Below are positions 16,096-63,589 of a DNA stretch of 64,000 bases, piece after piece. Every line of letters starts with the position of its first letter. Positions within the stretch are counted from its first letter, which is position 1. The notes beneath the pieces were generated by a model. That model was not told the origin of the DNA. It worked only from the letters and a program-made list of their open reading frames with translations, and made no database searches. The translations under genes and the position numbers were made by a program. Source of the stretch: Nitrospiria bacterium (GTDB lineage Bacteria; Nitrospirota; Nitrospiria; Nitrospirales; NS-4); the NCBI GenBank assembly GCA_041490525.1, contig JBGPTH010000001.1, forward strand, positions 44,115-108,114, read 5' to 3'.

Positions 16096-16896
16096 ATGGA
16101 CACCCATCTCCGCCAGCTCGAAGATCAGAGCGTCTATATCTTTCGGGAGGCCTACAAGCATTTCGATCATCTTGCGATGCTGTGGTCCATGGGCAAGGAC
16201 TCCACAGTGCTCCTATGGCTCGCCCGCAAGGCCTTCTTCGGGCACGTCCCGTTTCCGCTGATCCACATCGACACCAGCTTCAAGATTCCCGCCATGATCG
16301 AATACCGTGACCGCATCGTCCGGGAATGGCGCCTGAACTTGATTATCGGCCAGAACAAGGAGGCCCTCGCAAACGGGATGAACCACACCATGGGACGGGT
16401 CACCTGCTGCACGGCCCTCAAGACGAACGGCCTCAAGAACCTCCTCGCCGAGAAGGGCTACACCGGCGTGATCCTGGGGGTGCGAGCCGACGAGGAAGGG
16501 ACGCGGGCCAAGGAACGGTATTTCTCCCCGCGCGACAAGCACGGCGACTGGAATTTTCGCGAGCAGCCGCCCGAACTCTGGGACCAGTTCAAGACCACCT
16601 TCCCCGAAGGGACGCACATCCGCATCCACCCGCTGCTGGACTGGACCGAGGTCAACATCTGGGAATACATCAAGGCCGAATCCATCCCGATCATCGACCT
16701 GTATTTCGATAAGGGTGAGGGCATCCGCTACCGGAGCCTTGGGTGCGCCCCCTGCACCGCTCCGATCAAGTCCACCGCCAGGACCGTCGACGAGATCATC
16801 GAGGAGCTGCGCCATACCACCGTCGCGGAGCGCTCCGGGCGCGCGCAGGACGAGGGGCGCGGGATGGAGCTGCTCCGCAAAGACGGCTACATGTGA
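16096..16896 (+). CDS. cysD: sulfate adenylyltransferase subunit 2
   Basis: PP-loop '[16 protein letters not shown]'. 266 aa. Immediately followed by cysN. Confidence 0.93.
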
Positions 16897-16904
16897 CGAA
16901 CGCC

Positions 16905-48734: not shown

Positions 48735-50166
48735 CCTCGTCCCCCTCGTCCTCCTCCGGAGGCTCGTCCGACCCGTTCCCGCGTTTGATCCCGTATTTCT
48801 CCAGGCGGTAGCGGAACGACCGGGTATTGAGCTTCAGCAGGCGTGCCGCCGCGTTCTTGCGGCCGCCGCTACGCTCCAACGCTTTGACCAGCAAGCCTCG
48901 CTCAAAGCCGTTCAGCAGGCCTTCGAGGTCGAGCCCCTCCTGAGGGAGACTCGTCGGGAGCGTCGTCCCTGCCTCGGACGAGGGCCGGAGCCAGTCCCCA
49001 AGATCAGCGAGGGTGATCTCGGGCCCCGGCGCCAGTGCCACCGCCCGTTCCATTACATTGACCAGCTCACGGACGTTGCCCTTCCACTCATACTGCTGGA
49101 GCGCTTTCATAGCCTCAGGCGCAATGGTCAAGCCGGGCTTGTTCGCCCGCCGGCCGAAGTGCCCCAGGAAGTGTTGGAGGAGCAAGGGGATATCCTCGGG
49201 GCGCGACCGAAGCGGGGGGAGCGTGATAGGGATCACCTCCAACCGATAGTAGAGGTCCTCGCGAAACAGCCCCTGGGCCACCGCCTTGTTCAAGTCCCGG
49301 TTCGTCGCCGCGATGATCCGAACGTCCACTTTGATGTTGCGGGTTCCACCGACCCGTCGGAACTCCCGCTCCTGGATCACGCGCAAGAGCTTGGCCTGGA
49401 TCCCCGGGGGAATCTCCCCGATCTCGTCAAGGAACAGGGTGCCTCCGCTGGCCACCTCGAAAAGCCCTTCCTTGTTGGACACCGCGCCCGTGAACGAGCC
49501 CCGCATGTGTCCGAACAGCTCGCTTTCCAGCAGGGGCTCCGGGAGCGCCGCACAACACACCGTCACGAAGGCGCGATCCCGGCGGAGGCTGTTGTTGTGG
49601 ATGGCGCGCGCGGCGAGCTCCTTCCCCGTGCCGCTCTCCCCGCAGAGCAGAACGGTGCTGTTGGTCTCCGCCACGCGGCGGATGATGGCGAAGACCTTGT
49701 GCATCGCCTCGCTCTCCCCGATGATGTTCTCGAAAGCGCCCCGCCCCTTCAACTCCCGCTTCAACAGGAGGTTTTCGGCCGTGAGCCGCTTGGCATCGAC
49801 GGCCTTGCGGACGATGAGCTCCACGTGGTCGTTGTTGAAGGGCTTGGGCAGGACATCGTAGGCCCCCAGCTTCATGGCCTCGATCCCGACATCGAACGTG
49901 GCGAAGGCGGTCAGCACCACGACCACCGTGTCTGGAGAGATTTCTTTCACCGTTTTGAGGACATCCATCCCCCCGATGGGGCCCGGCATTTTGAGGTCCG
50001 TGAGGACGACATCAAAGATGTCCGCTTCGATCATCCGGACGGCTTGCTCGCCGGTCTCGGCCAAGGCCACGCTGTGACCGGCACGCTCCAGGAAGGTACT
50101 CAAAACCTCGCGCATCCCTCTCTCGTCGTCCACGACCAGAATTTTCGCCGAGGCCGGTTCCATCAC
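48727..50166 (-). CDS. pilR: sigma-54-dependent response regulator (NtrC family, PilR-like by context)
   Basis: Receiver ('ILVVDDE', 'FDVVLTDLKMPG'), AAA+ domain ('GESGTGKELAARAIH', 'GSFTGA' sigma-54 contact loop) and a C-terminal Fis-type HTH ('GGRKNAAARLLKLNTRSFRYRLEK'). It follows a PilS-like kinase and pilB/pilC. Confidence 0.8.
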   Translation of the reverse strand: MMEPASAKILVVDDERGMREVLSTFLERAGHSVALAETGEQAVRMIEADIFDVVLTDLKMPGPIGGMDVLKTVKEISPDTVVVVLTAFATFDVGIEAMKLGAYDVLPKPFNNDHVELIVRKAVDAKRLTAENLLLKRELKGRGAFENIIGESEAMHKVFAIIRRVAETNSTVLLCGESGTGKELAARAIHNNSLRRDRAFVTVCCAALPEPLLESELFGHMRGSFTGAVSNKEGLFEVASGGTLFLDEIGEIPPGIQAKLLRVIQEREFRRVGGTRNIKVDVRIIAATNRDLNKAVAQGLFREDLYYRLEVIPITLPPLRSRPEDIPLLLQHFLGHFGRRANKPGLTIAPEAMKALQQYEWKGNVRELVNVMERAVALAPGPEITLADLGDWLRPSSEAGTTLPTSLPQEGLDLEGLLNGFERGLLVKALERSGGRKNAAARLLKLNTRSFRYRLEKYGIKRGNGSDEPPEEDEGDEGE

Positions 50167-51869
50167 GGCGTCTTCACCTCCGCGTGATCCCGGATCGGCA
50201 GCAGGAGCCGCACGCGCGTCCCCTGCCCCGGCGCCGTGTCCACGTGCACTGCGCCCTCATGCGCATCCATGATCCGGTGCACCACCGACAGGCCGAGCCC
50301 GGTGCCGCCCTCCTTCGTCGTGAAGAAGGGATAGAAGATTTTCCTGAGATGGTCCTCGGGGATACCGCAGCCGGTGTCCTCGAACACAATCTCGACCCGC
50401 TCCCCCTCCAGCGTGCCCGCCGGGGCCGTCGCCCGGCTGGTGGTCACCGTCAACGTCCCCCCTTGGGGCATGGCCTGACAGGCGTTCAGGCCGAGATTCC
50501 AGCACACCTGGCGCATCTGATCGGGGTCCAGCATGGTCGTCGTGACGCCCTTCTCGGCCAGGCGGCGGACAAACCGGATCGACGTGTCGTAAGGAGGCGT
50601 CTGCTCCAGCATCCGGATGGTCTCGTCGACGAACTCGCTGACGTGGCACGGCTTGAGGTTCAACGGGCGGGGCCGGGCGTACTGGAGAAAACCGTTCACG
50701 ATCCCGTTCAACCGCTCGGTTTCGCGCAGGACGAGGTCCAGCAGGGACCGGTTGGCATCCGCGGGGCGCAGATCCTTGCGGAGCACCTGGATCGCGCCGG
50801 ACAGGGAGGCAAGAGGATTCCGGACCTCATGTGCCATGCCCGCCGACATCTCCCCGATCGTCGCCAGCCACTGTTTGCGACGCACCTCTTCTTCCATCTT
50901 CTTGAGGGGGGTGAGGTCCTGGAAGACCCCGACGAGCCCGGTGCGCACGCCCCGCTGGTGCAGGGGTGAGAGGCTCATGCCCAGGATCAGGCGGCTGCCG
51001 TCCTTGCGGCGTCCCATCTCCTCGATCCGACCCGGAAGATTAGACGGCTGCAGGGCTTTCGTGCTGATGGAGGCGGGCCAGCCGAAGACCTCCCACCAGA
51101 GGCGATCGCGGACCTCGGCCTCTGTACACCCCATGATCTCCTCGGCCCTCCGATTGAATGAGGTGACCAGTCCCCCAGAGCTGGTCGTGAAGACCCCGCT
51201 CTCGATGCTTTCCAGAATGCATCGGTGAAACTCCTGCAGCCCCAAAATGTCGCGGTCCTTCTCCTCTAGGCGCTCCCCGGCGCTCTGGAGTTTCCGCGCC
51301 AGGGTCCCGCTCAGATACCCGACCATCACGAACCCGAGGAGATTGATTGACAGGTTGTAGAAAATCTCGGGCACCGCCAGGCTGGTCGTCGGCAGCCACG
51401 ACAGGGACGGGAAGAGATGATAGGTGACGCGATAATACTGCAGGTCGACGATCACCCCGTAGAGGATCCCGGCCGACGAGGCCACCACGAGGGTCCCGTT
51501 GTTGGACAGGAGCACGCTGGCAGAGATGATCGACAGGATATAGAGGAGCGAGAACGGGCTTTCCACTCCCCCGGTGACCGCCACCAGGGCGGTCTCAATC
51601 AGAATGTCGCCCGCAAGCTGGAAGTAGGCAAACGGCACCAGCGCCCGGATGCGGTTGATGACCAGGCCGTACACCGCGGTGAGCAAGGCGGTCCCGCCGA
51701 TCAGGGCATAATAGACGGGAATCGAATGGGGGTTCTTGCCGATCTGGAAATAGATCGACACCCCCAGCGTCAGGGTCACGATGAGGACCCGGATGCCCAT
51801 GAGCCATTTGAGCTTGCGGCGGAGAAGGTCCATACATTTCGTCGACCCGCACGGGCCCTCAGCCCACAA
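50163..51869 (-). CDS. pilS: sensor histidine kinase, PilS-like (polytopic N-terminus, PAS, HisKA, HATPase)
   Basis: Roughly six N-terminal TM helices, a PAS-like region, the H-box 'SAGMAHEVRNPLASL' and an ATPase domain ('DTGCGI', 'GTGLGL'). Overlaps pilR by 4 nt. Confidence 0.75.
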   Translation of the reverse strand: MWAEGPCGSTKCMDLLRRKLKWLMGIRVLIVTLTLGVSIYFQIGKNPHSIPVYYALIGGTALLTAVYGLVINRIRALVPFAYFQLAGDILIETALVAVTGGVESPFSLLYILSIISASVLLSNNGTLVVASSAGILYGVIVDLQYYRVTYHLFPSLSWLPTTSLAVPEIFYNLSINLLGFVMVGYLSGTLARKLQSAGERLEEKDRDILGLQEFHRCILESIESGVFTTSSGGLVTSFNRRAEEIMGCTEAEVRDRLWWEVFGWPASISTKALQPSNLPGRIEEMGRRKDGSRLILGMSLSPLHQRGVRTGLVGVFQDLTPLKKMEEEVRRKQWLATIGEMSAGMAHEVRNPLASLSGAIQVLRKDLRPADANRSLLDLVLRETERLNGIVNGFLQYARPRPLNLKPCHVSEFVDETIRMLEQTPPYDTSIRFVRRLAEKGVTTTMLDPDQMRQVCWNLGLNACQAMPQGGTLTVTTSRATAPAGTLEGERVEIVFEDTGCGIPEDHLRKIFYPFFTTKEGGTGLGLSVVHRIMDAHEGAVHVDTAPGQGTRVRLLLPIRDHAEVKTP

Positions 51870-53061
51870 CCGACGCCATCTTGAAAATAGGCAGGTACAT
51901 CGCGATCACGATGAACCCGATCACGACACCCAGGAACACCATCAGGGCCGGTTCCAGCAGGGAGGTCAGACCGGCCACGGCCGCATCGACCTCGTCGTCG
52001 TAAAATTCGGCGATCTTGATCAGCATGGAGTCCAAGGCGCCGGTCGCCTCACCGACCGAAATCATCTGGACCACCATGGGGGGAAACACGTCGGTTTTTC
52101 CGATCGGGTCGGCGAGGGTCTTTCCTTCGCCCACGCTGGTCCGGGCCGCCAGGATGGCGTTTTCCACGACCTTATTGCCGGAGGCCCGCGCCACGACCTC
52201 GAGGGCGTCCATGATCGGCACGCCACTCTGGAGCATGGTCCCCAGGGTCCGCGTAAACTGGGCCACGGCGACTTTACGGATCAGGTCGCCCACCACCGGT
52301 ATTTTGAGCGCATAGGTGTCGATCTTCAGCCGACCGTCTGGGGTGCCATAGTACCGCTTCAGCGCCCACAGGCCCACCGCGGCCCCCACGGCCATGAAGA
52401 TGATGTACCGCTGCAGGAATTCGCTGAGCGAAATCACGAACTGGGTCGGCCCCGGGAGGGTCCCCCCGACCTCCGTGAACATCTTCGCAAAGATCGGAAT
52501 CACCCAGACCATCAGGACCGCCACCACGATGACGGCCACGCTCACGATGGCGGCGGGATAATACATGGCCGCCTTGATCTGCGCCTTCAGCTTCAGCGCC
52601 TTTTCCATCTGCACGGCCAGCCGGTTCAGGATCGTATCCAGGATCCCGCCGATCTCGCCGGCCTGCACCATGTTGCAATACAGGTTGTCGAAGACCCGGG
52701 GGTGCTTCTTCAGGGCATCCGTGTAGGTCTTTCCGGACTCCACATCCATCCGCACGTCGGTCAACAGCTTGCCGAGGGACTTGTTGTCGCACTGCGTGGA
52801 GAGAATTTCGAGGCACTGCACCAGGGGCAGCCCGGCATCGATCATGGTGGCGAACTGACGGGTGAAGATCACCAGGTCCTTGTCCGTGATCTTCTGCTTC
52901 TTGTCGCCGAAAACCTTGGGCTTTTCCTTCTCTTCGATCGTGGCGACCGTGATACCCTGAGACCGGAGTTGGGAGATGGCCGCATCCCTGTCGGCCGCGC
53001 TGAGTTCCCCTCGGGCCGTCTGCCCCCCTCTGCCTCTCCCGGCGTACGCGAAAACTGCCAT
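51859..53061 (-). CDS. pilC: type IV pilus platform protein (GspF/PilC family)
   Basis: 400 aa with two T2SS-F repeats ('FTRQFATMIDAGLPLVQCL', 'FTRTLGTMLQSGVPIMDAL') and three TM segments. Confidence 0.9.
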   Translation of the reverse strand: MAVFAYAGRGRGGQTARGELSAADRDAAISQLRSQGITVATIEEKEKPKVFGDKKQKITDKDLVIFTRQFATMIDAGLPLVQCLEILSTQCDNKSLGKLLTDVRMDVESGKTYTDALKKHPRVFDNLYCNMVQAGEIGGILDTILNRLAVQMEKALKLKAQIKAAMYYPAAIVSVAVIVVAVLMVWVIPIFAKMFTEVGGTLPGPTQFVISLSEFLQRYIIFMAVGAAVGLWALKRYYGTPDGRLKIDTYALKIPVVGDLIRKVAVAQFTRTLGTMLQSGVPIMDALEVVARASGNKVVENAILAARTSVGEGKTLADPIGKTDVFPPMVVQMISVGEATGALDSMLIKIAEFYDDEVDAAVAGLTSLLEPALMVFLGVVIGFIVIAMYLPIFKMASVVG

Positions 53062-53096
53062 GAAGTCACCTCACTTGGTTGGCAACGGAACCCGGA

Positions 53097-54938
53097 TCAG
53101 TCGGCTGCGGAGCAGGCTTCCACTTCGGAGATCGTCGTGGTCCCTTCCGCGATTTTGGTCAGGCCGCTCATGCGAAGCGTCTTGACGCCGTCCTCGATCG
53201 AGATCTTCTTGATCTCGTCCTGCGAAAGTCCCTGGAGAATGCCCGCCCGGATCCGTTCCGTGATGGGCATCACCTGATAGAGCGCCACGCGCCCCTTGTA
53301 CCCCGTCTTGTTGCAATTCGCGCACCCTTGTCCTTTGTGGGGCTTGGCCACGGCGATCTCCGCATCCGTCATGCCGATCTTTCGCAGGACGTCCGGCGTC
53401 ACCTCCGGATCCGGAATCTTGCAGTCCTTGCAGATGCGCCGCGCCAGTCGTTGGGCGATGACCAGGACCACAGAGGAGGAAACCAGGAACGGCTCGATCC
53501 CCATGTTCAAGAGGCGGTTGATAGTGGACGGGGCGTCGTTGGTATGGAGCGAGGCCAGCACCAAATGGCCGGTCAGCGCCGCCTTGACCCCGATTTCCCC
53601 CGTCTCGTAGTCCCGGATCTCCCCGATCATGATGATGTCGGGGTCCTGGCGCAGGAAGGCCTTGAGCGCCGCCGAGAAGGTCAGGCCGATGTCCGGCAAC
53701 ACCTGCACCTGGTTGATCCCCATAAAGTTGAACTCGACCGGGTCCTCGGCGGTGCAGATGTTCACCTCGGGGGTATTGAGGGCCTGCAGGGCCGAATAGA
53801 GGGTGGTGGTCTTCCCGCTCCCCGTCGGCCCGGTCACCAGGATCATCCCGTACGGAGAGGCCAGGGCGCTATTGAACTCGTTCCGCTGCATGTTTTCCAG
53901 GCCGAGCTTGGTCATGTCGAGCTGGATGGTGGCCTTATCCAGGATGCGCATGCAGGCCTTCTCCCCGAATAGGGTTGGCATGACCGAGACGCGGAAGTCC
54001 ACATCGCGCTTGTGCCCCAGCTTCAGCTTGATGCGCCCGTCCTGGGGGAGGCGGCGCTCGGCGATGTCCAGCTTCGCCATGATCTTGACGCGGGACACGA
54101 TCGCGCTTTTGACCTTCAAGGGCAGGTTCATGACCGTCATCATGTTGCCGTCCAGCCGGTACCGGACCCGGAAGACGTTTTCGTACGGCTCGATATGGAT
54201 GTCGCTGGCCCCCGCCTTCAGGGCATTGATCAGAATGCCGTGGACCAGCTTGACGATCGGGGCCTCGACCTGGGTAAGGACCCCGGCGTCGTCCTGGTCC
54301 TCTGCCACCTCGACGGAGTCCAGGGCATCCCCGACGGTCTTATCGAAGTCCTCGACATCGACCATCATATTGTCGTCCTGCTGGCCGAGATCGGCCAGTT
54401 GGTCGTCCTGATCGATATCGGAGACCGTGTAGTCTTTGACCTCCAGGAGCTTGGACGCGGGCTTGGCCTCACCGCCCCCAAGCCCCATTGCGGCGCCCCC
54501 GCCGTAGTATTTCCTGATCGCTTCAACCAGCGCCGGTTCGCTGGCAATGACGGGCTCGATCGTGTAATTCGTCCGGAACTTCAAATCGTCGATGGCGAAC
54601 ACATTGGTAGGATCCGACATCGCCACGCTCAGTCGGGCTCCGACCCGCTTGAGCGGCAGAATCATGTGTTTCTTGACCAATTCGACGGGGACCAGCTTGA
54701 TGATGGTGGGATCGATCGGGGGATGCACCTTGAGGTCCACGGCCTGAACCCGGTACTGCTGGGCGAGGAACCAGAGAAGCGTGTCCTCCTCGATGAACCC
54801 CATCTTGACCAGCATAGCCCCCAGCTTGCCGGTCCCTTTCTGTTGTTTTTGAAGAGCAATCGCCTCGTTCAACTGCTTCTCGGTGATCAACTTCGCCCCG
54901 ACAAGCAGCCTGCCCATCCTGTCAGCAACTACGGCCAT
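53097..54938 (-). CDS. pilB: type IV pilus assembly ATPase (GspE/PilB family) with MshEN-type N-terminal domain
   Basis: Walker A 'GPTGSGKTTTLY', Asp/His boxes and the tetracysteine 'CKDCK...CANCNKTGYKGR'. N-terminal aa 7-61 carry two copies of the MshEN-like motif. Confidence 0.9.
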   Translation of the reverse strand: MAVVADRMGRLLVGAKLITEKQLNEAIALQKQQKGTGKLGAMLVKMGFIEEDTLLWFLAQQYRVQAVDLKVHPPIDPTIIKLVPVELVKKHMILPLKRVGARLSVAMSDPTNVFAIDDLKFRTNYTIEPVIASEPALVEAIRKYYGGGAAMGLGGGEAKPASKLLEVKDYTVSDIDQDDQLADLGQQDDNMMVDVEDFDKTVGDALDSVEVAEDQDDAGVLTQVEAPIVKLVHGILINALKAGASDIHIEPYENVFRVRYRLDGNMMTVMNLPLKVKSAIVSRVKIMAKLDIAERRLPQDGRIKLKLGHKRDVDFRVSVMPTLFGEKACMRILDKATIQLDMTKLGLENMQRNEFNSALASPYGMILVTGPTGSGKTTTLYSALQALNTPEVNICTAEDPVEFNFMGINQVQVLPDIGLTFSAALKAFLRQDPDIIMIGEIRDYETGEIGVKAALTGHLVLASLHTNDAPSTINRLLNMGIEPFLVSSSVVLVIAQRLARRICKDCKIPDPEVTPDVLRKIGMTDAEIAVAKPHKGQGCANCNKTGYKGRVALYQVMPITERIRAGILQGLSQDEIKKISIEDGVKTLRMSGLTKIAEGTTTISEVEACSAAD

Positions 54939-55738: not shown

Positions 55739-55768
55739 TTGACAATCCGCGTCAATCTCCGATAAAGT
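55739..55768 (+). promoter_or_regulatory. candidate sigma-70 promoter for the sulfur-carrier cluster
   Basis: TTGACA (55739-55744), 18-nt spacer, TAAAGT (55763-55768). This placement makes ATG 55769 an unlikely start and favours ATG 55811 for the ThiS-like gene. Confidence 0.4.
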
Positions 55769-55810: not shown

Positions 55811-56011
55811 ATGCGCGTTGTGATCAATGGAAAGGCCGAAGAGGTACTTGGCGGCACCGTCCTGGAGATCCTCAAGGCCAAGGGTGTAGAGCCGCACATG
55901 GTGGCGGTGGAGCTCAACGCCAAGATTTTGGAACGGGAGGAGCTCAGCCGGACCACGGTCAAAGAGGGTGACGCCCTCGAACTCCTCTTTTATATGGGCG
56001 GAGGCCGGTAG
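55811..56011 (+). CDS. ThiS-family sulfur-carrier protein, C-terminus ...MGGGR
   Basis: 66 aa. 'MRVVINGKAEEVLGGTVLEILKAKGVEPHMVAVELNAKILEREELSRTTVKEGDALELLFYMGGGR' aligns along its whole length with ThiS (beta-grasp). The Gly-Gly is followed by one or two extra residues. Confidence 0.8.
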   Translation: MRVVINGKAEEVLGGTVLEILKAKGVEPHMVAVELNAKILEREELSRTTVKEGDALELLFYMGGGR

Positions 56012-56938
56012 GTGACTCCCCGGTATTCAACCATCACCGAGCTGATCGGCAACACCCCTCTCGTCCGCCTCAATAGGATCTCCAAGGAGGGATCCGCCAC
56101 CATCTATGCGAAGGTGGAATATTTCAATCCCGGCGGGTCGGTCAAGGACCGGATCTGCCTCAACATGATCAATGAGGCCGAGCGACAGGGGCGGCTCAAG
56201 CCGGGGGCCACGATCGTGGAGCCCACGAGCGGCAACACCGGCATCGGCCTGGCCCTCATCTCCGCCGTGCGCGGCTACAAGCTGATCCTCGTGATGCCGG
56301 AGAGCATGAGCATGGAACGGGCCAGCCTGCTTTCTTCCTACGGGGCGCAGCTCGTCCTGACCGCCGCCTGGGAAGGCATGAAGGGCTCCATCAAGGAAGC
56401 CGAGAGTCTGGCGGCCGCGAACCCGGAGTCCTTCATGCCGGATCAATTTTCGAATCCGGCGAATCCGGCCATGCACCGGAAGACCACGGCCGTCGAGATC
56501 TGGGAAGCGATGGAGGGCCAGATCGACGCCTTCGTGGCGGCCGTCGGGACCGGGGGAACGATCACGGGATGCGGCGAGGTCTTCAAGGAGAGAAACCCGA
56601 AGATCAAGGTCATCGCCGTGGAACCCGCCGGCTCGCCCGTCCTCTCAGGGGGCGACCCGGGTCCCCACCGGATTCAGGGGATCGGCGCGGGGTTCATTCC
56701 CAAGGTCCTGAACCGCTCGATCCTGGACGGCGTGATGACCGTCACCGACGAGGAGGCCTATCAGACCGCGAAGCTGCTGGCCAAGAAGGAAGGGCTCCTC
56801 GTCGGCATCTCCTCGGGGGCCAACGTCGCCGCCGCCCAGAAGGTGGCCGCGGAGCTTGGACCCGATAAGAATGTGGTCACGATCCTCTGCGACACCGGCG
56901 AGCGCTACATCAGCATCGAAAAATATTTTCATATCTAA
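56012..56938 (+). CDS. cysteine synthase family PLP enzyme (CysK/CysM)
   Basis: GTG start abutting the carrier gene's stop. 'ELIGNTPLVRLNRI', 'NPGGSVKDRI' (PLP Lys) and 'TSGNTGIGLA' are O-acetyl/O-phosphoserine sulfhydrylase motifs. Confidence 0.9.
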   Translation: MTPRYSTITELIGNTPLVRLNRISKEGSATIYAKVEYFNPGGSVKDRICLNMINEAERQGRLKPGATIVEPTSGNTGIGLALISAVRGYKLILVMPESMSMERASLLSSYGAQLVLTAAWEGMKGSIKEAESLAAANPESFMPDQFSNPANPAMHRKTTAVEIWEAMEGQIDAFVAAVGTGGTITGCGEVFKERNPKIKVIAVEPAGSPVLSGGDPGPHRIQGIGAGFIPKVLNRSILDGVMTVTDEEAYQTAKLLAKKEGLLVGISSGANVAAAQKVAAELGPDKNVVTILCDTGERYISIEKYFHI

Positions 56939-56952
56939 CGAAAGCATCTCGC

Positions 56953-57771
56953 ATGCCCTTCTCACCGGACTCGGAAGAACAGCTCACCCGCTACAGCCGG
57001 CACATTCTCCTTCCGGAGGTCGGCGGGAAAGGACAGCAAAAGATCAGCCAGGCCCGGGTGCTCATCGTCGGCGCCGGGGGGCTGGGGTCTCCGGCGGCCT
57101 TTTATCTGGCCGCGGCGGGCGTGGGGACGGTCGGTCTCATCGACGGCGACGTGGTGGACCTGTCCAACCTCCAGCGGCAGGTGATCCATCAGACCGACGA
57201 CGTCGGGCGGCCGAAGGTGGACTCGGCCCGGGCCAAGATTGAGGCCCTCAACCCCAACGTGGCGGTCGAGACCCATTACACGCGCCTCACGGCGGAGAAT
57301 GCGCTGAATCTCCTCGGCCGCTACGACATCGTCGTGGACGGCGTGGACAACTTCTCGTCGAAGTTCCTCATCAACGACGCGTGCTTCTTCGCCCAAAAGC
57401 CCCTCGTGCACGGCGGCATCATCCGATTTGACGGGCGGGTGTTCACCATCCTGCCCGGAAAGAGCGCGTGCTTCCGCTGCATCTTCAAGCAACCGCCGCC
57501 CCCGGGGACGGTCGCGAGCTGCCAGGAGGCCGGCGTGATCGGCGCGCTCGCGGGCGTCATCGGCACCATCCAGGCGACAGAAGTCCTGAAATGGATTCTG
57601 GGCCGGGGGCGCCTGCTCACCGACCGGCTCCTGGACTACGACGCGCGCCAGACCCGCTTCCGCGAAATCAAGGTCGCCAGGAACCCGCGATGCGCCTTGT
57701 GCGGGGAGCATCCCGAGATCACCCGGTTGTTCGAGTACGAACCGGAGGCCTGCGCGGTCAAGACCTCGTGA
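56953..57771 (+). CDS. ThiF/MoeB/HesA-family E1-like adenylyltransferase (copy 1, no rhodanese domain)
   Basis: 'RYSRHILLPEVGGKGQQKISQARVLIVGAGGLGSPAAFYLAAAGVG', 'DLSNLQRQ', and the Zn CxxC pairs 'CFRC' and 'CALCG'. 272 aa. Confidence 0.88.
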   Translation: MPFSPDSEEQLTRYSRHILLPEVGGKGQQKISQARVLIVGAGGLGSPAAFYLAAAGVGTVGLIDGDVVDLSNLQRQVIHQTDDVGRPKVDSARAKIEALNPNVAVETHYTRLTAENALNLLGRYDIVVDGVDNFSSKFLINDACFFAQKPLVHGGIIRFDGRVFTILPGKSACFRCIFKQPPPPGTVASCQEAGVIGALAGVIGTIQATEVLKWILGRGRLLTDRLLDYDARQTRFREIKVARNPRCALCGEHPEITRLFEYEPEACAVKTS

Positions 57772-57778
57772 GGATGCC

Positions 57779-59026
57779 ATGACTGCCGCCAAGATCAAAG
57801 GGCTGGTCTGCCGCGAATGCGGCAAGGAATACCCCCCGGTCTCCCTCCACGTCTGCGAGATGTGCTTCGGCCCCCTCGAGGTCCAATACGACTACGAGGC
57901 GATCAAGCGGAGCATCTCCCGAAAGAAGATCGAGGCGGGACCCAAAAGCCTCTGGCGCTACGTGGACCTCCTGCCCATTCAGGGGGAGCCCACGGTGGGG
58001 CTCTATGCCGGTTTCACCCCGCTCATCCACGCCAGAAACCTCGGCGATGAGCTGGGCCTGGACAAGCTGTACATCAAGAACGATACGGTGAACCATCCGA
58101 CCCTGTCGTTCAAGGACCGCGTGGTCTCGGTGGCGCTCACGCGCGCGCGCGAGCTGGGCTACGACACGGTCGCCTGCGCCTCGACCGGCAATCTCGCCAA
58201 CTCGGTCGCGGCTCATGCCGCCGCCGCCAAGATGCACTGCTACGTCTTCATCCCCCACGACCTGGAAGCCTCCAAGGTCCTAGGCAACCTCGTGTACCGG
58301 CCCCACGTCGTGGAGGTCGAGGGCAATTACGACGACGTCAACCGGCTCTGCAGCGAGATCGCGGGCGAGCACAAGTGGGCCTTCGTCAATGTCAACATCC
58401 GCCCCTATTACGCCGAAGGGTCCAAGACCCTGGCCTACGAGGTCGTCGAGCAGCTCGGCTGGGTGGCCCCGGATCAGATCGTCATCCCGATGGCCTCCGG
58501 TTCGCTGCTGACGAAGGTGTGGAAGGGCCTGAAGGAACTCCATAATCTGGGCCTCATCGACCGCCTGACCACCCGGATCCACGGGGCGCAGGCCGAGGGG
58601 TGTGCCCCCATCGCGACGGCCTACAAGCAGGGCCGTGACTACTTCAAGCCGGTCAAGCCCAAGACCATCGCCAAGTCGCTCGCCATCGGCAATCCCGCCG
58701 ATGGGTACTACGCGCTGAAAGCCACCGCCGAGAGCGGCGGGGCCATGGACGATGTGACGGATGAGGAGATCATCGAGGGCATGATGCTCCTGGCGCAAAC
58801 CGAGGGCATCTTCGCCGAGACGGCCGGGGGGGTGACGATCGGTGTGCTCAAGAAACTGGTGAAACACGGGATCATCAAGCGGTCCGATGTCACGGTGGCC
58901 CTGATCACCGGCAACGGCCTGAAGACCCAGGAAGCGGTCGTCAACGCCGTCGGCCGCCCCACGCGGATCACCCCCAGCCTGGTCCAATTTGAGCAGACGT
59001 TCAACCTCGGCAAACACGCGGAGTAA
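57779..59026 (+). CDS. threonine synthase-like PLP enzyme with N-terminal Zn ribbon
   Basis: 'CRECGKEYPPVSLHVCEMCFGPLEV' Zn ribbon. 'NHPTLSFKDRVVS' (PLP Lys) and 'ACASTGNLANS' fit the ThrC family. Immediately followed by a CysO-like carrier gene. Confidence 0.85.
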   Translation: MTAAKIKGLVCRECGKEYPPVSLHVCEMCFGPLEVQYDYEAIKRSISRKKIEAGPKSLWRYVDLLPIQGEPTVGLYAGFTPLIHARNLGDELGLDKLYIKNDTVNHPTLSFKDRVVSVALTRARELGYDTVACASTGNLANSVAAHAAAAKMHCYVFIPHDLEASKVLGNLVYRPHVVEVEGNYDDVNRLCSEIAGEHKWAFVNVNIRPYYAEGSKTLAYEVVEQLGWVAPDQIVIPMASGSLLTKVWKGLKELHNLGLIDRLTTRIHGAQAEGCAPIATAYKQGRDYFKPVKPKTIAKSLAIGNPADGYYALKATAESGGAMDDVTDEEIIEGMMLLAQTEGIFAETAGGVTIGVLKKLVKHGIIKRSDVTVALITGNGLKTQEAVVNAVGRPTRITPSLVQFEQTFNLGKHAE

Positions 59027-59032
59027 ACCGCC

Positions 59033-59335
59033 ATGGTGAAAGTCCGTATTCCCACTCCCCTGCGTCCGCTGACCGGCGGGAAGGGAGAAGTGGAGACCCA
59101 GGCCGGCGACATCGTCTCGATGATCGAGTCGCTGAACGGGCAATTCCCCGGCCTCAAGGACCGGGTCTGCGACGAGAAGGGCGAGATCCGACGGTTCGTG
59201 AACATCTACCTGAACGAGGAGGACATCCGGTTCATGAAAGGCAAGGACACGCCCCTCAAGGCGGGCGACGTGGTCTCCATCGTCCCCGCGATCGCCGGTG
59301 GAGCCCCGGCAGGCCGCCAGAGAGGATTCAATTGA
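59033..59335 (+). CDS. CysO/MoaD-family sulfur-carrier protein with 10-aa extension after Gly-Gly
   Basis: 'MVKVRIPTPLRPLTGGKGEVE...IRRFVNIYLNEEDIRF...GDVVSIVPAIAGG-APAGRQRGFN' closely resembles my memory of M. tuberculosis CysO ('IPTILRPHTGG...HRFVNIYVNDEDVRF...ILPAVAGG'). Confidence 0.85.
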   Translation: MVKVRIPTPLRPLTGGKGEVETQAGDIVSMIESLNGQFPGLKDRVCDEKGEIRRFVNIYLNEEDIRFMKGKDTPLKAGDVVSIVPAIAGGAPAGRQRGFN

Positions 59336-59577
59336 TGGCCCATCTGCGCTTTCATCTGCGGTTTCCCGAAGACAAGATCAAGGAGCCGGTCCTCTGCCAG
59401 ATCAATCGGGAGTTCCCCAAGGTCGACACCAACATCCGCCGGGCGGACGTTCGGGAGAAAACCGGCTGGATGGACGTGGAGTTCGCGGGTCCGACCGCGG
59501 AGATCGAGCGCGCCATCGAGGGCATCAGGAAGAAGGGGGTCATCGTGGACCCCATCGAGCTGAATGTCGTAGAATGA
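59335..59577 (+). CDS. NIL-domain (ferredoxin-fold) protein
   Basis: 80 aa from ATG 59335 (TGATG overlap with the carrier stop). 'HLRFHLRFPEDKIKEPVLCQINREFPKVDTNIRRADV...GWMDVEFAG' resembles the NIL domain found at MetN C-termini. Confidence 0.6.
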   Translation: MAHLRFHLRFPEDKIKEPVLCQINREFPKVDTNIRRADVREKTGWMDVEFAGPTAEIERAIEGIRKKGVIVDPIELNVVE

Positions 59578-59594
59578 TTGTGAGGAGGAGGAAA

Positions 59595-59611
59595 GGGTTA
59601 AACGTTAACCC
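59595..59611 (+). terminator. short hairpin after the NIL gene
   Basis: GGGTTAA-acg-TTAACCC, 18 nt after the stop at 59577. The flank is AT-rich but not a clean U-tract. Confidence 0.25.
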
Positions 59612-59678
59612 TTAAACGTAAAACTGAATCGGAATTTCGTCCGTTTAACGTATAACGATTCACGAATAACGAGCAACC

Positions 59679-60482
59679 ATGGAGTTCACGGACAAACAGA
59701 TCGAGCGGTACAGCCGCCACATCATCCTGCAGGAGGTGGGCGGGAAAGGCCAGAAGAAGCTGACCGCCTCGAAGGTGTTCATCATCGGCGCCGGCGGGCT
59801 CGGCTCCCCCGCCGCCCTCTATCTGGCCGCGGCGGGCATCGGGACGATCGGGCTCATTGACGGCGATGTCGTGGACCTGTCCAACCTTCAGCGGCAGATT
59901 CTCCACACCACCCAGAGCATCGGCAAATTAAAAGTCGAGTCCGGGCGCGAGATGCTCGCCGCGATCAACCCGGATGTCACGATCAAGACGTACCCGATGA
60001 CCCTCAATGCCGAGAACATCCTGGACCTCATCCAGGATTACGACGTCGTCCTGGACGGCTCGGACAACTTCACCACGCGTTATCTGGTGAACGACGCCTG
60101 TTTCTTCGCCCGAAAGCCGCTGATCTCCGGCAGCATCTTCCGGTTCGAGGGCCAGCTCACCACCATCAAGCCGCGGGAGGGCTTCCCCTGCTACCGGTGC
60201 CTGTATGCCGAACCCCCTCCGGCCGGCCTCGTCCCGAACTGCCAGGAAGCCGGCGTGCTCGGGGTCCTCGCCGGCACAATCGGCACGCTGCAGGCCGCCG
60301 AGGCGATCAAGGAGATCGTCGGGATCGGGACATCGCTGGCCGGTTTCATTCTGATCTATGACGCCCTGGAGATGACTTTCCGGAAGACCCGCATACCAAA
60401 AGATTCGTCCTGCCCGCTCTGCGGGCCCACCCCGCGCATCAAGGACCTGTCGGGCGACTACTCGGTGTCGTGCTCTCTCTGA
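59679..60482 (+). CDS. ThiF/MoeB/HesA-family E1-like adenylyltransferase (copy 2, no rhodanese domain)
   Basis: 'RYSRHIILQEVGGKGQKKLTASKVFIIGAGGLGSPAALYLAAAGIG', 'DLSNLQRQ', 'CYRC' and 'CPLCG'. A clear paralogue of 56953-57771. Confidence 0.88.
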   Translation: MEFTDKQIERYSRHIILQEVGGKGQKKLTASKVFIIGAGGLGSPAALYLAAAGIGTIGLIDGDVVDLSNLQRQILHTTQSIGKLKVESGREMLAAINPDVTIKTYPMTLNAENILDLIQDYDVVLDGSDNFTTRYLVNDACFFARKPLISGSIFRFEGQLTTIKPREGFPCYRCLYAEPPPAGLVPNCQEAGVLGVLAGTIGTLQAAEAIKEIVGIGTSLAGFILIYDALEMTFRKTRIPKDSSCPLCGPTPRIKDLSGDYSVSCSL

Positions 60483-60955
60483 CGATCCCCAAAAAGATCC
60501 TTGCGGAGATGGTGGAAGAGGCGAGGAAGCTCGTACCCCACGAGTGCTGCGGGCTGCTGGCGGGGAAGGACGGACGGGTCACGCACCACTACAAGATCAC
60601 GAACATCGTGGCAAGCCAGGACGCGGGGGTGCAGGAGATGTTCGACCAGGCAAAGGTGGCGCATCTGGAGCGCCTATCGCCTGAGGAACGCGCGGACATC
60701 GCCTTCTGGATGGACCCCAAGGACATGTTCGCCGCGCAAAAGGACATGCGCGCGCAGGGCACCGACATGCTCGCCAGCTATCACTCCCACCCGGTGTCCC
60801 CGGCTCGGCCCTCTCCCACCGATATCAAAGCGCTGGCCTCCTACCCGGACCTCGTCCACCTCATCGTGTCGCTTCAGGACGCCACCCAACCGGCCATCAA
60901 CGCCTTCCGCATCGCGGAGGACGCCGCCACGCCGGTGGCCTACCAGACGAGCTGA
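60470..60955 (+). CDS. JAMM/MPN+ metalloprotease (Mec+/CysO-hydrolase-like)
   Basis: GTG start overlapping the E1 gene by 13 nt. 'PHECCGLLAG' (catalytic Glu) and 'SYHSHPVSPARPSPTDI' (HxHx7Sx2D JAMM motif). Confidence 0.88.
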   Translation: MLSLTIPKKILAEMVEEARKLVPHECCGLLAGKDGRVTHHYKITNIVASQDAGVQEMFDQAKVAHLERLSPEERADIAFWMDPKDMFAAQKDMRAQGTDMLASYHSHPVSPARPSPTDIKALASYPDLVHLIVSLQDATQPAINAFRIAEDAATPVAYQTS

Positions 60956-61021: not shown

Positions 61022-61065
61022 GCGGATTCTATCGCGGAATTAAGCGGATTCTATCGCGGAATTAA
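61022..61065. repeat. perfect 22-bp tandem duplication spanning the modC stop
   Basis: gcggattctatcgcggaattaa occurs twice back to back (61022-61043 and 61044-61065). The second copy contains the last modC codons and stop (minus strand ...ATT CCG CGA TAG). Confidence 0.9.
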
Positions 61066-62145
61066 ATGGATAGCGGAGGCTTTGATGGTGGCCGTGACGG
61101 GCGCGCCGGGGGCCAACCCCAGGTCCTGCGCAGACTGGCGGGTGACCAGCGCCGTCAGCGCAAAGCCGCAGTCGATGGACACGCGCGAGACCGGTCCGGC
61201 CGGATGGACGGCGGTGACCCGACCGGGCAGGTGGTTCCGGGCGCTGCTGCTCGGACCGGCGCCGGTCTCGACGGTCACGTCCTCGGCCCGAATGCACATG
61301 TAAAACTCCTCGCCCTTCCCGGAGGTCTCCAGGGCCCACAGCCGTACGCCCCCCACCTCCAGCCCCACCAGGTCCTCCTTGCGGTCGGCGAGCCGCCCCA
61401 TCATCACCGTCTCCACCCCGACGATGGCGGCTACCTCGGTATCGACCGGCCGGCTGAAGACCTCCTCCGGAGACCCGGTCTGAAGCACGCGCCCGCCGGC
61501 CATGACCGCCACCTCGTCCGCCAAGGCCAGCACCTCGACCCAGTCATGGGTGACGCAGATGGCCGGGGTGCCCTGCCCGCGCAACAGTCCCCGCAACTCC
61601 CCCCGCACCTGCTCGCGGGTCGGCGCATCCAGGGCGGACAACGGCTCGTCCAGCAGCAACAGCCGCGGGCGGCGCATCAGCACCCTCGCGAGCGCCACGC
61701 GCTGCTGCTGACCCCCGGAGAGCTGGCTCGGGCGACGCTCTTCCAATCCCTTCAGGCGCAGGAGCCTGAGCAGGTCCTCCAGCCGGGCCTCGCGTTCCTT
61801 TCCGGAAATCCCCGTCCGCGAATAGGTGATGTTGCGGGCGACGGTGAGATGGGGAAAGAGCGCGTACTCCTGGAAGAGATAGCCGATGGCGCGGGCCTGC
61901 GGCGGCCTCATGACCCCGGATTCCGTGTCGAACCAGGTCTCGCCGCCAAAGCTGATCCGCCCGCGCGCGGGGCGTTCCAGGCCGGCCAGGCAGCGCAGCA
62001 CCGTCGTCTTGCCGGCCCCCGACGGGCCGAACAGGACCGTCACGTGCGGCCGCCCGACCGGCATTCGAAGGGCCGCCCGGATGGTCTGGCCCCCGCCGTA
62101 CACCATCTCGAAGTCGGCCGTTATCTCATCGGCCATACGGCCCAC
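61051..62145 (-). CDS. modC: molybdate ABC transporter ATP-binding protein with C-terminal TOBE domains
   Basis: 'GPSGAGKTTVLRCLAGL', 'LSGGQQQRVALARVL' and 'LLLLDEPLSALD'. The ~130-aa C-terminal TOBE/Mop-like region and the modA-modB-modC order support the call. Confidence 0.85.
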   Translation of the reverse strand: MGRMADEITADFEMVYGGGQTIRAALRMPVGRPHVTVLFGPSGAGKTTVLRCLAGLERPARGRISFGGETWFDTESGVMRPPQARAIGYLFQEYALFPHLTVARNITYSRTGISGKEREARLEDLLRLLRLKGLEERRPSQLSGGQQQRVALARVLMRRPRLLLLDEPLSALDAPTREQVRGELRGLLRGQGTPAICVTHDWVEVLALADEVAVMAGGRVLQTGSPEEVFSRPVDTEVAAIVGVETVMMGRLADRKEDLVGLEVGGVRLWALETSGKGEEFYMCIRAEDVTVETGAGPSSSARNHLPGRVTAVHPAGPVSRVSIDCGFALTALVTRQSAQDLGLAPGAPVTATIKASAIHLIPR

Positions 62146-62795
62146 ACGTTCCGGTTGATCGCATAGACGACCGACAGCACGAGAAACGAAAATACCAGCA
62201 GCACGAGGGCCGTCTGCGCGGCGCCGGCATAGTTGAGCGCCTGCACCTCGTCATAGATGTCGATGGAGACGGTGCGGGTCGCGCCGGGAATATTCCCGCC
62301 CACCATCAGGACCACGCCGAATTCGCCCAACGTATGGGCGAAGCTGAGGACGACGCCGCTCACCACGCCCGCGACCGACATCGGGAGCGTCACCCGGACG
62401 AACGTCGCCAGCCGGGACACCCCGAGCGTCCACGAGGCCTCGACGAGCTTCGGGTCCACCGCCCCGAACGCGGCGGTGAAGGGCTGGACGGCGAAGGGAA
62501 GACTGTAGAGGACGGAGGCGACCACGAGCCCCTCGAACGTGAAGACCAGGGGGTGGCCGACGGCCGCCTGGTACCATTCCCCGATCGGGCTCCTCGGGCC
62601 GATCGCCACGAGCAGGTAGAAGCCCAGAACCGTGGGCGGAAGGACCAGCGGCAGCGCGACGACCGATTCCACGAGAAACTTCCAACGCCGGCGCGAGTAG
62701 GTCAGCCAGTACGCGATCGGTAGCCCCACCACGATGAGAATCACGGCGGTCAGGGCCGCCAGCTTCAGCGTCAGGACGATCGCGCCCCAGTTCAT
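62121..62795 (-). CDS. modB: molybdate ABC transporter permease
   Basis: 224 aa with five or six TM helices and an EAA-like loop ('EASWTLGVSRLATFVRVTLP'). Overlaps both modA and modC. Confidence 0.85.
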   Translation of the reverse strand: MNWGAIVLTLKLAALTAVILIVVGLPIAYWLTYSRRRWKFLVESVVALPLVLPPTVLGFYLLVAIGPRSPIGEWYQAAVGHPLVFTFEGLVVASVLYSLPFAVQPFTAAFGAVDPKLVEASWTLGVSRLATFVRVTLPMSVAGVVSGVVLSFAHTLGEFGVVLMVGGNIPGATRTVSIDIYDEVQALNYAGAAQTALVLLVFSFLVLSVVYAINRNVWAVWPMR

Positions 62796-63589
62796 GACGG
62801 AGGCTTTTCCGGCAGCAGGAAGCCGTACCGTTTGAGGACGGCGGCCCCGACCGGGCCTTTCACGAACTCCAGGAAGTCCTGCGCCCCTTTCGGGTTCTTC
62901 GCGCTTTTCAAGATCACCGCGCCCTGCTCGATCGCGGGGTAAGCCTCCTGCGGAACCTCATAGAAGTTCCCGAGTGGCTTGATCATCGGCGACACGGCCA
63001 GCGACATGGCGAGGATCCCGATTTCGGCCGAGCCGGACTGGACGAAATGCGCCGTCTGCACGATGTTCTCTCCCAGGAGGAGTTTGTTTTTCACCGCGTC
63101 GTAGATCTTATAGTGTTCCATCGCCGCTACCGCGGACTGGCCGTAGGGCGCCTGCTTTGGGTTCGCGATGGCGATTTTTTTGACCGACGAATGCTGGAGC
63201 GCCTTCATCCCCATGTACCGGACATCGATCGGCGACCCCTTGGGCACCCACAGCACGATCCGCCCGGTCGCATACGAGTAAAGAGACTTGGGATCGGCCC
63301 GCCCGGCCTCCACCAGCTTCTTCGGGTAGGCCGTGTTCGCCGAGAAAAAGAGGTCGAACCGCGCGCCGGTCGAGATCAGCAGGAAGAAGTTTCCGGAGGA
63401 GCCCAAGGAGAGCTTGACCTGATCGCCGGTGATCTGTTCGTACTCCGCCGCCAGGTCCTTGAACGCGAAATTCAAATCCGCCGCCGCCGCGACGGTGATC
63501 TCCCCCGCCTGGGCGCCGCTGCCCCCTGCGCCGACGAGGAGCGCGCTCAGCACGAGGGCCCCCAGAATGCCGTCAATCCATGTCCGCAT
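62792..63589 (-). CDS. modA: molybdate ABC transporter substrate-binding protein
   Basis: Signal peptide, then 'ITVAAAADLNFAFKDLAAEYEQITGDQVKLSLGSSGNFF...DLFFSAN', the typical ModA pattern. Confidence 0.85.
   Translation of the reverse strand: MRTWIDGILGALVLSALLVGAGGSGAQAGEITVAAAADLNFAFKDLAAEYEQITGDQVKLSLGSSGNFFLLISTGARFDLFFSANTAYPKKLVEAGRADPKSLYSYATGRIVLWVPKGSPIDVRYMGMKALQHSSVKKIAIANPKQAPYGQSAVAAMEHYKIYDAVKNKLLLGENIVQTAHFVQSGSAEIGILAMSLAVSPMIKPLGNFYEVPQEAYPAIEQGAVILKSAKNPKGAQDFLEFVKGPVGAAVLKRYGFLLPEKPPS

Follow-up and report, generated by a model that had tools for sequence, protein, structure and literature searches.

In this study we analyse a 64,000-nucleotide (nt) stretch of contig JBGPTH010000001.1 from a Nitrospiria bacterium, hereafter the window, with a focus on eight co-directional genes at positions 55811-60955 on the + strand. 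On balance, we favour the reading that these genes form one operon that puts reduced sulfur into amino acids via protein thiocarboxylates, not free sulfide, and that comprises two modules with a shared JAMM protease. We hold the homocysteine arm with good confidence; here a ThrC-like pyridoxal 5'-phosphate (PLP) enzyme would act together with a MoaD-like sulfur carrier. For the cysteine arm, in which a CysK-type enzyme would act together with a ThiS-like carrier, the chances appear even, and a sulfur relay through a TusA domain is placed lower than both arms. O-phosphohomoserine-dependent homocysteine synthesis by MetM/MetO has reportedly been described for Streptomyces albulus by Hasebe et al. 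in 2024. An earlier note on this DNA had named this pair as a precedent, which proved to be real, being cited in the GapMind preprint (10.1101/2024.10.14.618325) and in PMC12172450. The interpretation given in that note, of parallel routes to cysteine and homocysteine, is borne out in part.

Organization and conservation of the cluster

The earlier note had described eight genes in the order ThiS-like carrier, CysK/M, a first E1 (here E1a), ThrC-like enzyme, CysO-like carrier (here MoaD-like carrier), NIL protein, a second E1 (here E1b) and JAMM protease. All eight open reading frames (ORFs) were found where they had been placed, and the order was confirmed by protein families assigned with Pfam and NCBIfam profiles and their curated cut-offs. 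The features of the cluster are as follows.

55739-55768, + strand: promoter-like sigma-70-type site TTGACA-18 nt-TAAAGT, about 45 nt upstream of the ThiS-like gene
55811-56011, + strand: ThiS/HcyS-type sulfur carrier, 66 residues (PF02597; TIGR01683, 55 bits)
56012-56938, + strand: CysK-type PLP cysteine synthase (O-acetylserine sulfhydrylase type), 308 residues (PALP; TIGR01139, 461 bits)
56953-57771, + strand: E1a, ThiF/MoeB-type adenylyltransferase, 272 residues (ThiF domain only)
57779-59026, + strand: ThrC-like PLP enzyme, putatively MetM-type, 415 residues (PALP; TIGR00260, 294 bits)
59033-59335, + strand: MetO/CysO-type (MoaD-family) sulfur carrier, 100 residues (PF02597)
59335-59577, + strand: stand-alone NIL protein, 80 residues (PF09383, 51 bits, cut-off 24)
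59578-59678: NIL-E1b spacer, 101 nt, about 41% G+C, with two inverted 7-nt repeat arrays
59679-60482, + strand: E1b, second ThiF/MoeB-type adenylyltransferase, 267 residues (ThiF domain only)
60470-60955, + strand: JAMM/MPN+ metalloprotease (Prok-JAB), 161 residues (PF14464, 76 bits)

The junctions measure, in gene order, 0, 14, 7 and 6 nt, an overlap of 1 nt, a gap of 101 nt and an overlap of 13 nt. The 1-nt overlap joins the stop of the MoaD-like carrier to the start of the NIL gene, whose true start is the ATG at 59335 and not the TTG at 59332. Aligned Nitrospirales loci carry the motif CTTGACAA-N17-TA(A/C)CGT upstream of the ThiS-like gene at an unchanged distance, and three Leptospirillum-clade loci (L044, L045 and L047) lack it.

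A genome scan with one genome per species yielded 80 loci, which were annotated by phmmer with the eight window proteins. The complete eight-gene order was present in 38 loci including the window, which belong to Nitrospira, other Nitrospirales, Leptospirillum (L047) and L044/L045. Other Nitrospirales loci were incomplete, owing to contig ends or to genes split by ORF calling (L042, L049). Contigs of the Nitrospira tepida type have the identical gene order with quite different flanking genes, and other contigs are syntenic with the window. The arrangement is far beyond chance, since the identical order recurs in 38 loci while the flanks vary. In the Leptospirillum metagenome-assembled genome (MAG) L047, metK (S-adenosylmethionine synthetase) and ahcY (S-adenosylhomocysteine hydrolase) lie at 3438-5990, immediately 5' of the eight genes.

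The ThrC-like enzyme

The ThrC-like enzyme has an N-terminal four-cysteine zinc ribbon (C11, C14, C26 and C29) and its PLP lysine, K112, in the motif SFK(112)DR. Solved threonine synthases align to it only from about residue 55 onwards, with 190-223 bits. Genomes of Nitrospirales and Nitrospira, together with metagenomes, supply its closest relatives (78-99% identity); one match of 97% identity is labelled Candidatus Methylomirabilis, and all others are Nitrospirota. An exact-sequence look-up of the protein gave no match. The protein is 59-99% identical to 82 members of its clade and at most 41.5% identical to canonical ThrC.

We aligned the 82 distinct clade members with 15 canonical ThrC sequences (4 solved, 11 from the same loci). 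A column was called clade-specific when a residue conserved in at least 95% of the clade differed from a residue conserved in at least 85% of the canonical enzymes. The alignment contains 40 such columns and an insert of eight residues in the clade relative to canonical ThrC. In Thermus thermophilus numbering, the substitutions include T88L, S155N, N157R, R160Y, N188S, GNAGN to ASGSL, and D323T. In the window enzyme, L139, N206, Y211, S240 and ASGSL stand in place of T88, S155, R160, N188 and GNAGN, and all or nearly all of the 82 members are alike in this. T88, S155, R160, N188 and the GNAGN loop do not vary among canonical enzymes and presumably surround the substrate phosphate and PLP sites; T88, S155, R160 and N188 are taken to line the phosphate site of T. 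thermophilus ThrC, an assumption for which a literature check gave no confirmation.

A tblastn search of a plasmid collection retrieved an 11.85-Mb record of Nonomuraea gerenzanensis encoding a homologue that is 53% identical along its whole length, including the zinc ribbon. At 38 of the 40 columns this homologue agrees with the clade, and at no column does it carry the canonical residue. Its gene is followed by a MoaD-like gene whose product is 49% identical to the MoaD-like carrier of the window, and the pair lies behind an S-adenosylmethionine (SAM) riboswitch (RF00162, 68.7 bits). According to PMC12172450, metM of S. albulus also lies behind a SAM riboswitch. The earlier suggestion that the ThrC-like enzyme and the CysO-like carrier correspond to MetM/MetO thus agrees with the Nonomuraea pair, and the placement it had called for, ThrC or MetM-like, came out as MetM-like.

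Regulatory elements at other loci point in the same direction. Rfam scans of 23 non-Nitrospirales loci placed a SAM riboswitch immediately 5' of the clade gene in 14; one is also present in L007, and in L048 and L054 the riboswitch lies 5' of the NIL gene, which is followed by the clade gene. In an Actinobacteria MAG (L067), a T-box leader at 7670-7924 precedes a string of MetM-like, carrier, E1 and CysK genes, and by our reading its specifier, aligned to the Rfam consensus, is AUG, the methionine codon. The same locus carries a thiamine pyrophosphate riboswitch at 1330-1478, 6 kb upstream of the T-box and on the opposite strand.

The notion that the ThrC-like gene encodes a threonine synthase, possibly the sole or a bifunctional one, and that the carrier, E1 and JAMM genes serve something else has to be weighed here. 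In its favour, the protein scores 294 bits with the thrC model TIGR00260, above the cut-off of 167, and every source name of its relatives reads "threonine synthase". No canonical thrC occurs in the window or in the Nitrospirales loci, each of which spans at most about 21 kb. The score has to be read alongside that of the canonical ThrC neighbour in locus L050, 325 bits: TIGR00260 fails to separate the MetM-like clade from canonical ThrC. The clade is systematically misnamed, because public names call its members threonine synthases and the model passes both clades.

In 11 loci of Thermodesulfovibrionia or Magnetobacteriaceae type, the gene string continues after NIL with a canonical ThrC. These second enzymes are 60-67% identical to T. 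thermophilus ThrC and 35-39% identical to their clade neighbour. In L050 (7992-15001) the string runs MetM-like gene, carrier, NIL, canonical ThrC, HomK (TIGR02535, 564 bits) and aspartate kinase, and is followed by a LeuA/homocitrate-synthase-like gene; strings as far as the second ThrC are found in L051, L056-L058, L061, L065, L066, L069, L073 and L077. HomK is an alternative homoserine phosphotransferase (GapMind 2026 preprint, 10.1101/2024.10.14.618325). The L050 string would make O-phosphohomoserine, which branches to threonine and, by inference, to homocysteine.

Together with the 40 clade-specific substitutions, the methionine-related control elements, and the tight translational coupling of the ThrC-like gene to a carrier with a Gly-Gly end in all loci, these strings make an ordinary threonine synthase improbable. 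That the ThrC-like enzyme is of the MetM type, and hence a proposed O-phosphohomoserine-dependent homocysteine synthase, is well supported by the sequence comparison.

Some points weigh against this assignment. A Rfam scan of the window cluster and its surroundings found no SAM riboswitch, T-box or other known RNA. The link to MetM/MetO of S. albulus runs through the Nonomuraea proxy and citing papers. A Microcystis member of the lineage converts O-phosphohomoserine to threonine in vitro, and it also deaminates threonine (PMC12172450). The threonine formation was slow, with a very low Vmax of 0.018 µmol/mg/min, which also counts against a threonine synthase role. Since this enzyme forms threonine, water can serve as the nucleophile, and a residual or dual activity is possible.

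The NIL protein

A NIL protein embedded in the cluster had been reported before, and our profile search supports this (PF09383, 51 bits). According to the phmmer annotation, NIL adjoins the MetM-like and carrier genes in Nitrospirota, Verrucomicrobiota, Dehalococcoidia, NC10 and Pseudomonadota MAGs, and is absent from the actinomycete loci. Its conserved positions include fP..ikeP, niRrA and G...lEl.G. A role as persulfide carrier was rejected, as NIL has no conserved cysteine.

The AlphaFold (AF2) model, with a predicted local distance difference test score of 80, has a beta-alpha-beta-beta-alpha-beta topology. Its best Foldseek matches are the C2/NIL domains of MetN (2QRR, 2QSW, 3CED, 3DHX and 6CVL), with template modelling scores of 0.70-0.75. 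The NIL domain of MA1822, a subunit of the homocysteine-forming L-aspartate-semialdehyde sulfurtransferase, binds methionine and regulates activity (PMC12068725).

In locus L078, a fusion of carrier and NIL with an internal AIAGG (3622-4152, 176 residues) is part of a cluster with MetM-like, CysM-like, JAMM and E1 genes and a DsrE-like gene after the E1. We searched 1.84 billion cluster representatives and obtained 292 NIL matches, among which the following fusions had their domains confirmed by Pfam.

P0422, P0456, P0489, P0507 and P0420: MoaD-type carrier fused to NIL, internal ..AIAGG, Lys/Arg-rich linker
P0386: ThiS-type carrier (..HYMAGG) fused to NIL
P0397: JAMM fused to NIL
P0442: C-terminus of a MetM-like enzyme fused to NIL
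P0362 and others: tandem NIL-NIL

Some of these fusions could be gene-calling artefacts. Their independent occurrence at less than 50% mutual identity argues for real fusions. Since they join NIL to carrier, JAMM protease or MetM-like enzyme, the fusions indicate that it probably works physically with all three. NIL is the third partner conserved in the MetM-like system, and we predict that it is a methionine sensor controlling the maturation or the use of the carrier.

E1 enzymes, sulfur carriers and protease

Neither E1a (272 residues) nor E1b (267 residues) carries a rhodanese domain; Pfam and NCBIfam give ThiF as the sole domain in both, in line with the earlier note. The GxGGxG motif, two CxxC pairs and the CQEAG cysteine are intact in both enzymes, and in E1a they are G40xGGxG, the zinc motifs C173xxC and C247xxC, and the conserved Cys190. 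The closest solved structures of E1b are Escherichia coli MoeB (1JW9) and ThiF (1ZFN). E1a and E1b are 52.6% identical to each other and fall into two separate, stable clades (43 and 42 sequences) without mixing. Because each forms its own clade, they have been kept apart since before the split of Nitrospira and Leptospirillum. These two clades, and the adjacency or overlap of the ThiS-like gene and cysK, suggest that each carrier may be served by its own E1. In NC10 (L048, 3037-4128) and Dehalococcoidia (L081, 9692-10876), an E1 with an N-terminal ThiS-family beta-grasp fusion adjoins the MetM-like system.

The MoaD-like carrier has Mycobacterium tuberculosis CysO (3DWG_C, 71 bits) as its best solved match. 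It ends in PAIAGG followed by 0-11 unconserved residues across the loci, 10 in the window. The earlier note had paired it with the ThrC-like enzyme and not with the cysteine synthase; the gene order bears this out, as it follows the ThrC homologue and the ThiS-like carrier abuts cysK. The ThiS-like carrier ends in FYMGGG-R in the window, its Gly-Gly end being capped by one residue, and in F[YF]MGGG plus one or two unconserved residues in every Nitrospirales locus. Its closest solved structure, the "ThiS" of Geobacter metallireducens (2K5P/3CWI, 49.9 bits), has the same type of end, FMGGGK.

The metal site of the JAMM protease is intact (H105-x-H107-x7-S115-x2-D118, HSHPx6SPTD). Because both carriers extend beyond Gly-Gly, both presumably need this protease for their maturation. 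In the CysO/Mec+ and HcyS/HcyD systems, a JAMM protease frees the amino acid from the carrier. By analogy, the protease of the cluster would also be needed to release the amino acid from both carriers.

The best NCBIfam names of the carriers, E1 enzymes and protease are SAMP1, the SAMP-activating E1 UbaA and desampylase. These names would fit a ubiquitin-like conjugation system similar to the archaeal one, whose role would be to modify CysK and the ThrC-like enzyme or to regulate them, and not to carry sulfur. Archaeal SAMPs do both jobs, conjugation and sulfur carriage (PMC4443979). The scores, however, are below the cut-offs (SAMP1 53 versus 60 bits, UbaA 321 and 330 versus 450, desampylase 72 versus 130), and E2- or E3-like genes are lacking. 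CysO and the MetO-type carriers, the nearest relatives that have been characterised, carry sulfur, and the evidence from regulation and neighbourhood points to methionine biosynthesis. We therefore regard a conjugation system as very improbable.

The proposed cysteine module

The earlier note had left the cysteine synthase as CysK/M and had asked which of the two it was. The CysK assignment stands and the CysM assignment does not: the protein scores 461 bits with the cysK model TIGR01139 (cut-off 351), whereas the cysM models give 307-308 bits, under their own cut-offs. Among solved structures, 2EGU (386 bits) and M. tuberculosis CysK1 (2Q3B, 350 bits) come closest, and the top 60 matches do not include M. 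tuberculosis CysM. The cysK gene starts directly at the stop of the ThiS-like gene in the window, and the two overlap by 4 nt in Nitrospira. We infer that CysK uses the ThiS-like thiocarboxylate and yields cysteine.

Two features count against this arm: the enzyme is ordinary by sequence and may simply use sulfide, and the ThiS-like carrier passes the thiS model TIGR01683 (55 bits versus a cut-off of 37). They fit an arrangement in which module 2, formed by the ThrC-like enzyme and the MoaD-like carrier, is alone the thiocarboxylate pathway, and the first three genes are housekeeping ThiS and ThiF genes (for thiamine or general use) with a sulfide-dependent CysK. CysK is indeed a standard cysK equivalog, and the structures nearest to it are of CysK enzymes that use sulfide. 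Repeated adjacency of ThiS and cysteine synthase was described by Iyer et al. (2006; PMC1779556), who read it as cysteine supplying the sulfur of ThiS.

Set against this arrangement is the end of the ThiS-like carrier, always capped by one or two residues after GGG, whereas the readable ThiS chains of T. thermophilus (2CU3), Bacillus subtilis (1TYG_B) and E. coli (1F0Z) stop at Gly-Gly; the closest solved relative shares the capped end. JAB proteases never occur in thiamine or molybdenum cofactor operons (PMC1779556), yet a JAMM protease is part of the cluster. Neither in nor near the cluster was thiG, thiH, thiO or thiE found in any locus checked. The ThiS-like stop abuts or overlaps the cysK start, and from Nitrospira through to Leptospirillum E1a has been retained beside E1b as a clade of its own. 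Taken together, housekeeping roles for the first three genes seem unlikely, if less so than the threonine synthase explanation above.

Clusters elsewhere also combine the two kinds of module. Compact clusters in L078, L067 and L063 have one carrier with both MetM-like and CysK/CysM-like genes, and in L048 of NC10 a set of cysteine synthase, carrier, JAMM and E1 genes adjoins a set of riboswitch, NIL, MetM-like and carrier genes. Because L078, L067, L063 and L048 show it, the co-location of cysteine and homocysteine modules is recurrent.

Possible sulfur supply

A complete assimilatory sulfate-reduction operon, headed by an Rrf2-family regulator, is present at 12440-18740 on the + strand of the window.

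12440-12895, + strand: Rrf2-family regulator (CymR/IscR-like; PF02082, 122 bits; TIGR00738 above cut-off; CymR model 102 bits, below cut-off)
12943-15393, + strand: fusion of a sulfite/nitrite-reductase-family protein and TusA, 816 residues (NIR_SIR, NIR_SIR_ferr; TusA PF01206 at residues 746-814)
15270-16088, + strand: cysH ORF, true start probably near 15400
16096-16896, + strand: cysD
16743-18740, + strand: cysN/C-like gene

The TusA domain of the sulfite reductase-TusA fusion (SiR::TusA) has its cysteine in the motif CPIN. Identity to the best 120 homologues is about 67-94%; those with a name are all from Nitrospirota, and nearly all homologues have TusA. The cysteine motif CP[LIM]N is kept in 117 of the 120, the other three being truncated sequences. 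The helical middle region matches HEPN (PF05168) in some homologues.

In the ThiS/MoaD-JAB-E1 sulfur-assimilation operons of Iyer et al. (2006), the E1 lacks a rhodanese domain and a SirA/TusA protein is always included; G. metallireducens and Wolinella are among the genomes with such operons (PMC1779556). Because of this rule and of the DsrE-like gene in L078, SiR::TusA is, by analogy, the best candidate sulfur donor for the rhodanese-less E1-carrier complexes. Against it, the sulfate-assimilation genes lie 37-43 kb, and SiR::TusA itself 43 kb, from the thiocarboxylate cluster, so that the link is one of co-occurrence and analogy. Alternatively, and more simply, sulfide reacts directly with the acyl-adenylate.

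Proposed pathway

In module 2, the JAMM protease would trim the MoaD/CysO-type carrier to its Gly-Gly end, and an E1, probably E1b, would adenylate the carrier and lead to its thiocarboxylate. The MetM-type enzyme would then use the carrier thiocarboxylate as the nucleophile in a gamma-replacement on O-phosphohomoserine, and the protease would release the carrier-homocysteine adduct as in CysO/Mec+ and HcyS/HcyD. NIL would bind this machinery, most likely sensing methionine and throttling the maturation or use of the carrier. In module 1, the capped ThiS/HcyS-type carrier, E1a and the CysK-type synthase would convert O-acetylserine to cysteine. Sulfur would be handed to the E1-carrier complexes by SiR::TusA, or sulfide would attack the acyl-adenylates.

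A more far-reaching version is tentative and, in our estimation, rather doubtful: a closed, protein-bound relay in which sulfite is reduced on SiR and its sulfur passes directly from the fused TusA to the rhodanese-less E1-carrier pairs, both cysteine and homocysteine being formed without free sulfide, with NIL as a methionine-sensing regulator of maturation and release by the JAMM protease. If true, NIL would be the C-terminal pro-domain of the carrier in many organisms, cut after Gly-Gly like a ubiquitin fusion, and the system would represent product-controlled proteolytic activation of a sulfur-carrier protein.

Comparison with known systems

The homocysteine module appears to work like MetM/MetO and to belong to that enzyme clade. 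Both have a ThrC-homologous PLP enzyme beside a MoaD/CysO-type carrier with a Gly-Gly end, and both require a JAMM hydrolase and an E1. Unlike in Streptomyces, for which GapMind lists MoeZ and Mec as encoded elsewhere (10.1101/2024.10.14.618325), the operon here encodes an E1 and a JAMM protease of its own, and this E1 lacks rhodanese. Further differences are the missing SAM riboswitch, the additional NIL partner and the attached second module of carrier, E1 and CysK.

The likeness to CysO/CysM/Mec+/MoeZ of M. tuberculosis is one of logic: the nucleophile is a carrier thiocarboxylate, its target is a PLP-bound aminoacrylate, and the amino acid is freed by a JAMM protease. CysO is the best solved relative of the MoaD-like carrier, and the JAMM protease is intact. 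The comparison with CysO/CysM drawn in the earlier note nevertheless fails in three of four defining features. The synthase is CysK-type and not the O-phosphoserine-specific CysM, the neighbouring carrier is ThiS-type, and the rhodanese domain of MoeZ is absent from the E1. CysO/CysM/MoeZ of M. tuberculosis is thus an analogue in mechanism and does not belong to the same family.

Wolinella succinogenes makes homocysteine with HcyS, HcyF, HcyD and MetY. Module 1 may work like HcyS/HcyF/HcyD, with CysK replacing MetY. The class 4e operons of Iyer et al. (2006; PMC1779556) are the corresponding comparison for this type. Shared features are a ThiS-type carrier with one or more residues past Gly-Gly, a rhodanese-less E1 and a JAMM protease. 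A linkage to sulfate assimilation and a SirA/TusA protein may be a further likeness, these genes being present in the window but 37-43 kb off, with TusA fused to sulfite reductase. Unlike in those operons, the cluster contains no MetY, and its PLP enzymes are CysK and the ThrC homologue.

NIL shares its Pfam family, its predicted fold and a methionine or homocysteine setting with the C2 domain of MetN, the methionine ABC transporter, and with the NIL domain of MA1822, the ferredoxin subunit of L-aspartate-semialdehyde sulfurtransferase. In contrast to these, the NIL protein of the cluster is stand-alone, without an ATPase or ferredoxin domain, and NIL associates or fuses with carriers, JAMM and the MetM-like enzyme.

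A literature search of incomplete coverage found nothing on the Nitrospira cluster, on the NIL association or on the SiR::TusA fusion. The fixed Nitrospirales operon with two carriers, two E1 enzymes and one protease, the NIL partner, which is often fused, and the co-occurring SiR::TusA are apparently new.

The NIL-E1b spacer and surrounding genes

The spacer at 59578-59678 contains two heptad arrays in inverted orientation, with CGTnnnn units on the left side and ACGnnnn units on the right side. Comparable arrays with varying units (TTCACG, TGACG, ATCAC, CAGC, AGGGG) occur in many Nitrospira loci, the left array always being the reverse complement of the right while the unit changes between lineages. 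Of the 21 distinct gaps of 60 nt or more, 14 show a self-identity of 0.41-0.56 at lag 7; other Nitrospira lack the NIL-E1b gap (0-15 nt). The repeat finder TRF detects these heptad units elsewhere as well, including the CysK-E1a and E1b-JAMM gaps. Heptad arrays were also seen at L001 11760-11862, L021 9766-9882, L011 6852-6942, L016 7130-7159 and L040 7067-7098. Rfam gave no match for the arrays, and the fold of the window spacer is no better than that of shuffled sequences (z = -0.9). A specific RNA structure or a NIL-linked protein-binding array was dropped as an explanation, given the weak fold, the frequent absence of the spacer and the repeats elsewhere. The arrays are probably a generic Nitrospira intergenic repeat, and possibly a stabilising or processing hairpin.

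In the window, the cluster is flanked by type IV pilus genes (pilB, pilC and pilS-like, 50163-54938) and by modABC-type molybdate transport genes (61051-63589). A housekeeping block at 5543-12272 (- strand) encodes ribosomal protein L20, IF-3, threonyl-tRNA synthetase, ClpB and one tRNA (8753-8824). A 1197-residue protein with PilZ, acyltransferase/hydrolase and methyltransferase domains (26321-29914, - strand) is unrelated to the cluster, and two-component and HD-domain response-regulator genes lie near it.

Biological significance

The homocysteine route via a ThrC homologue and a sulfur carrier was described as recently as 2024, in Streptomyces. Our results indicate that it is widespread, occurring in Nitrospirota, NC10, Chloroflexota, Verrucomicrobiota and Actinobacteria. 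The name "threonine synthase" may make metabolic reconstructions wrongly report a missing methionine pathway. The NIL domain gains a testable set of partners, namely the carrier, the JAMM protease and the MetM-like enzyme, and SiR::TusA is a specific proposed answer to the question of where the rhodanese-less E1 enzymes obtain their sulfur. Nitrospira, the principal nitrite-oxidising bacteria in soil and in wastewater plants, carry it as part of a fixed operon.

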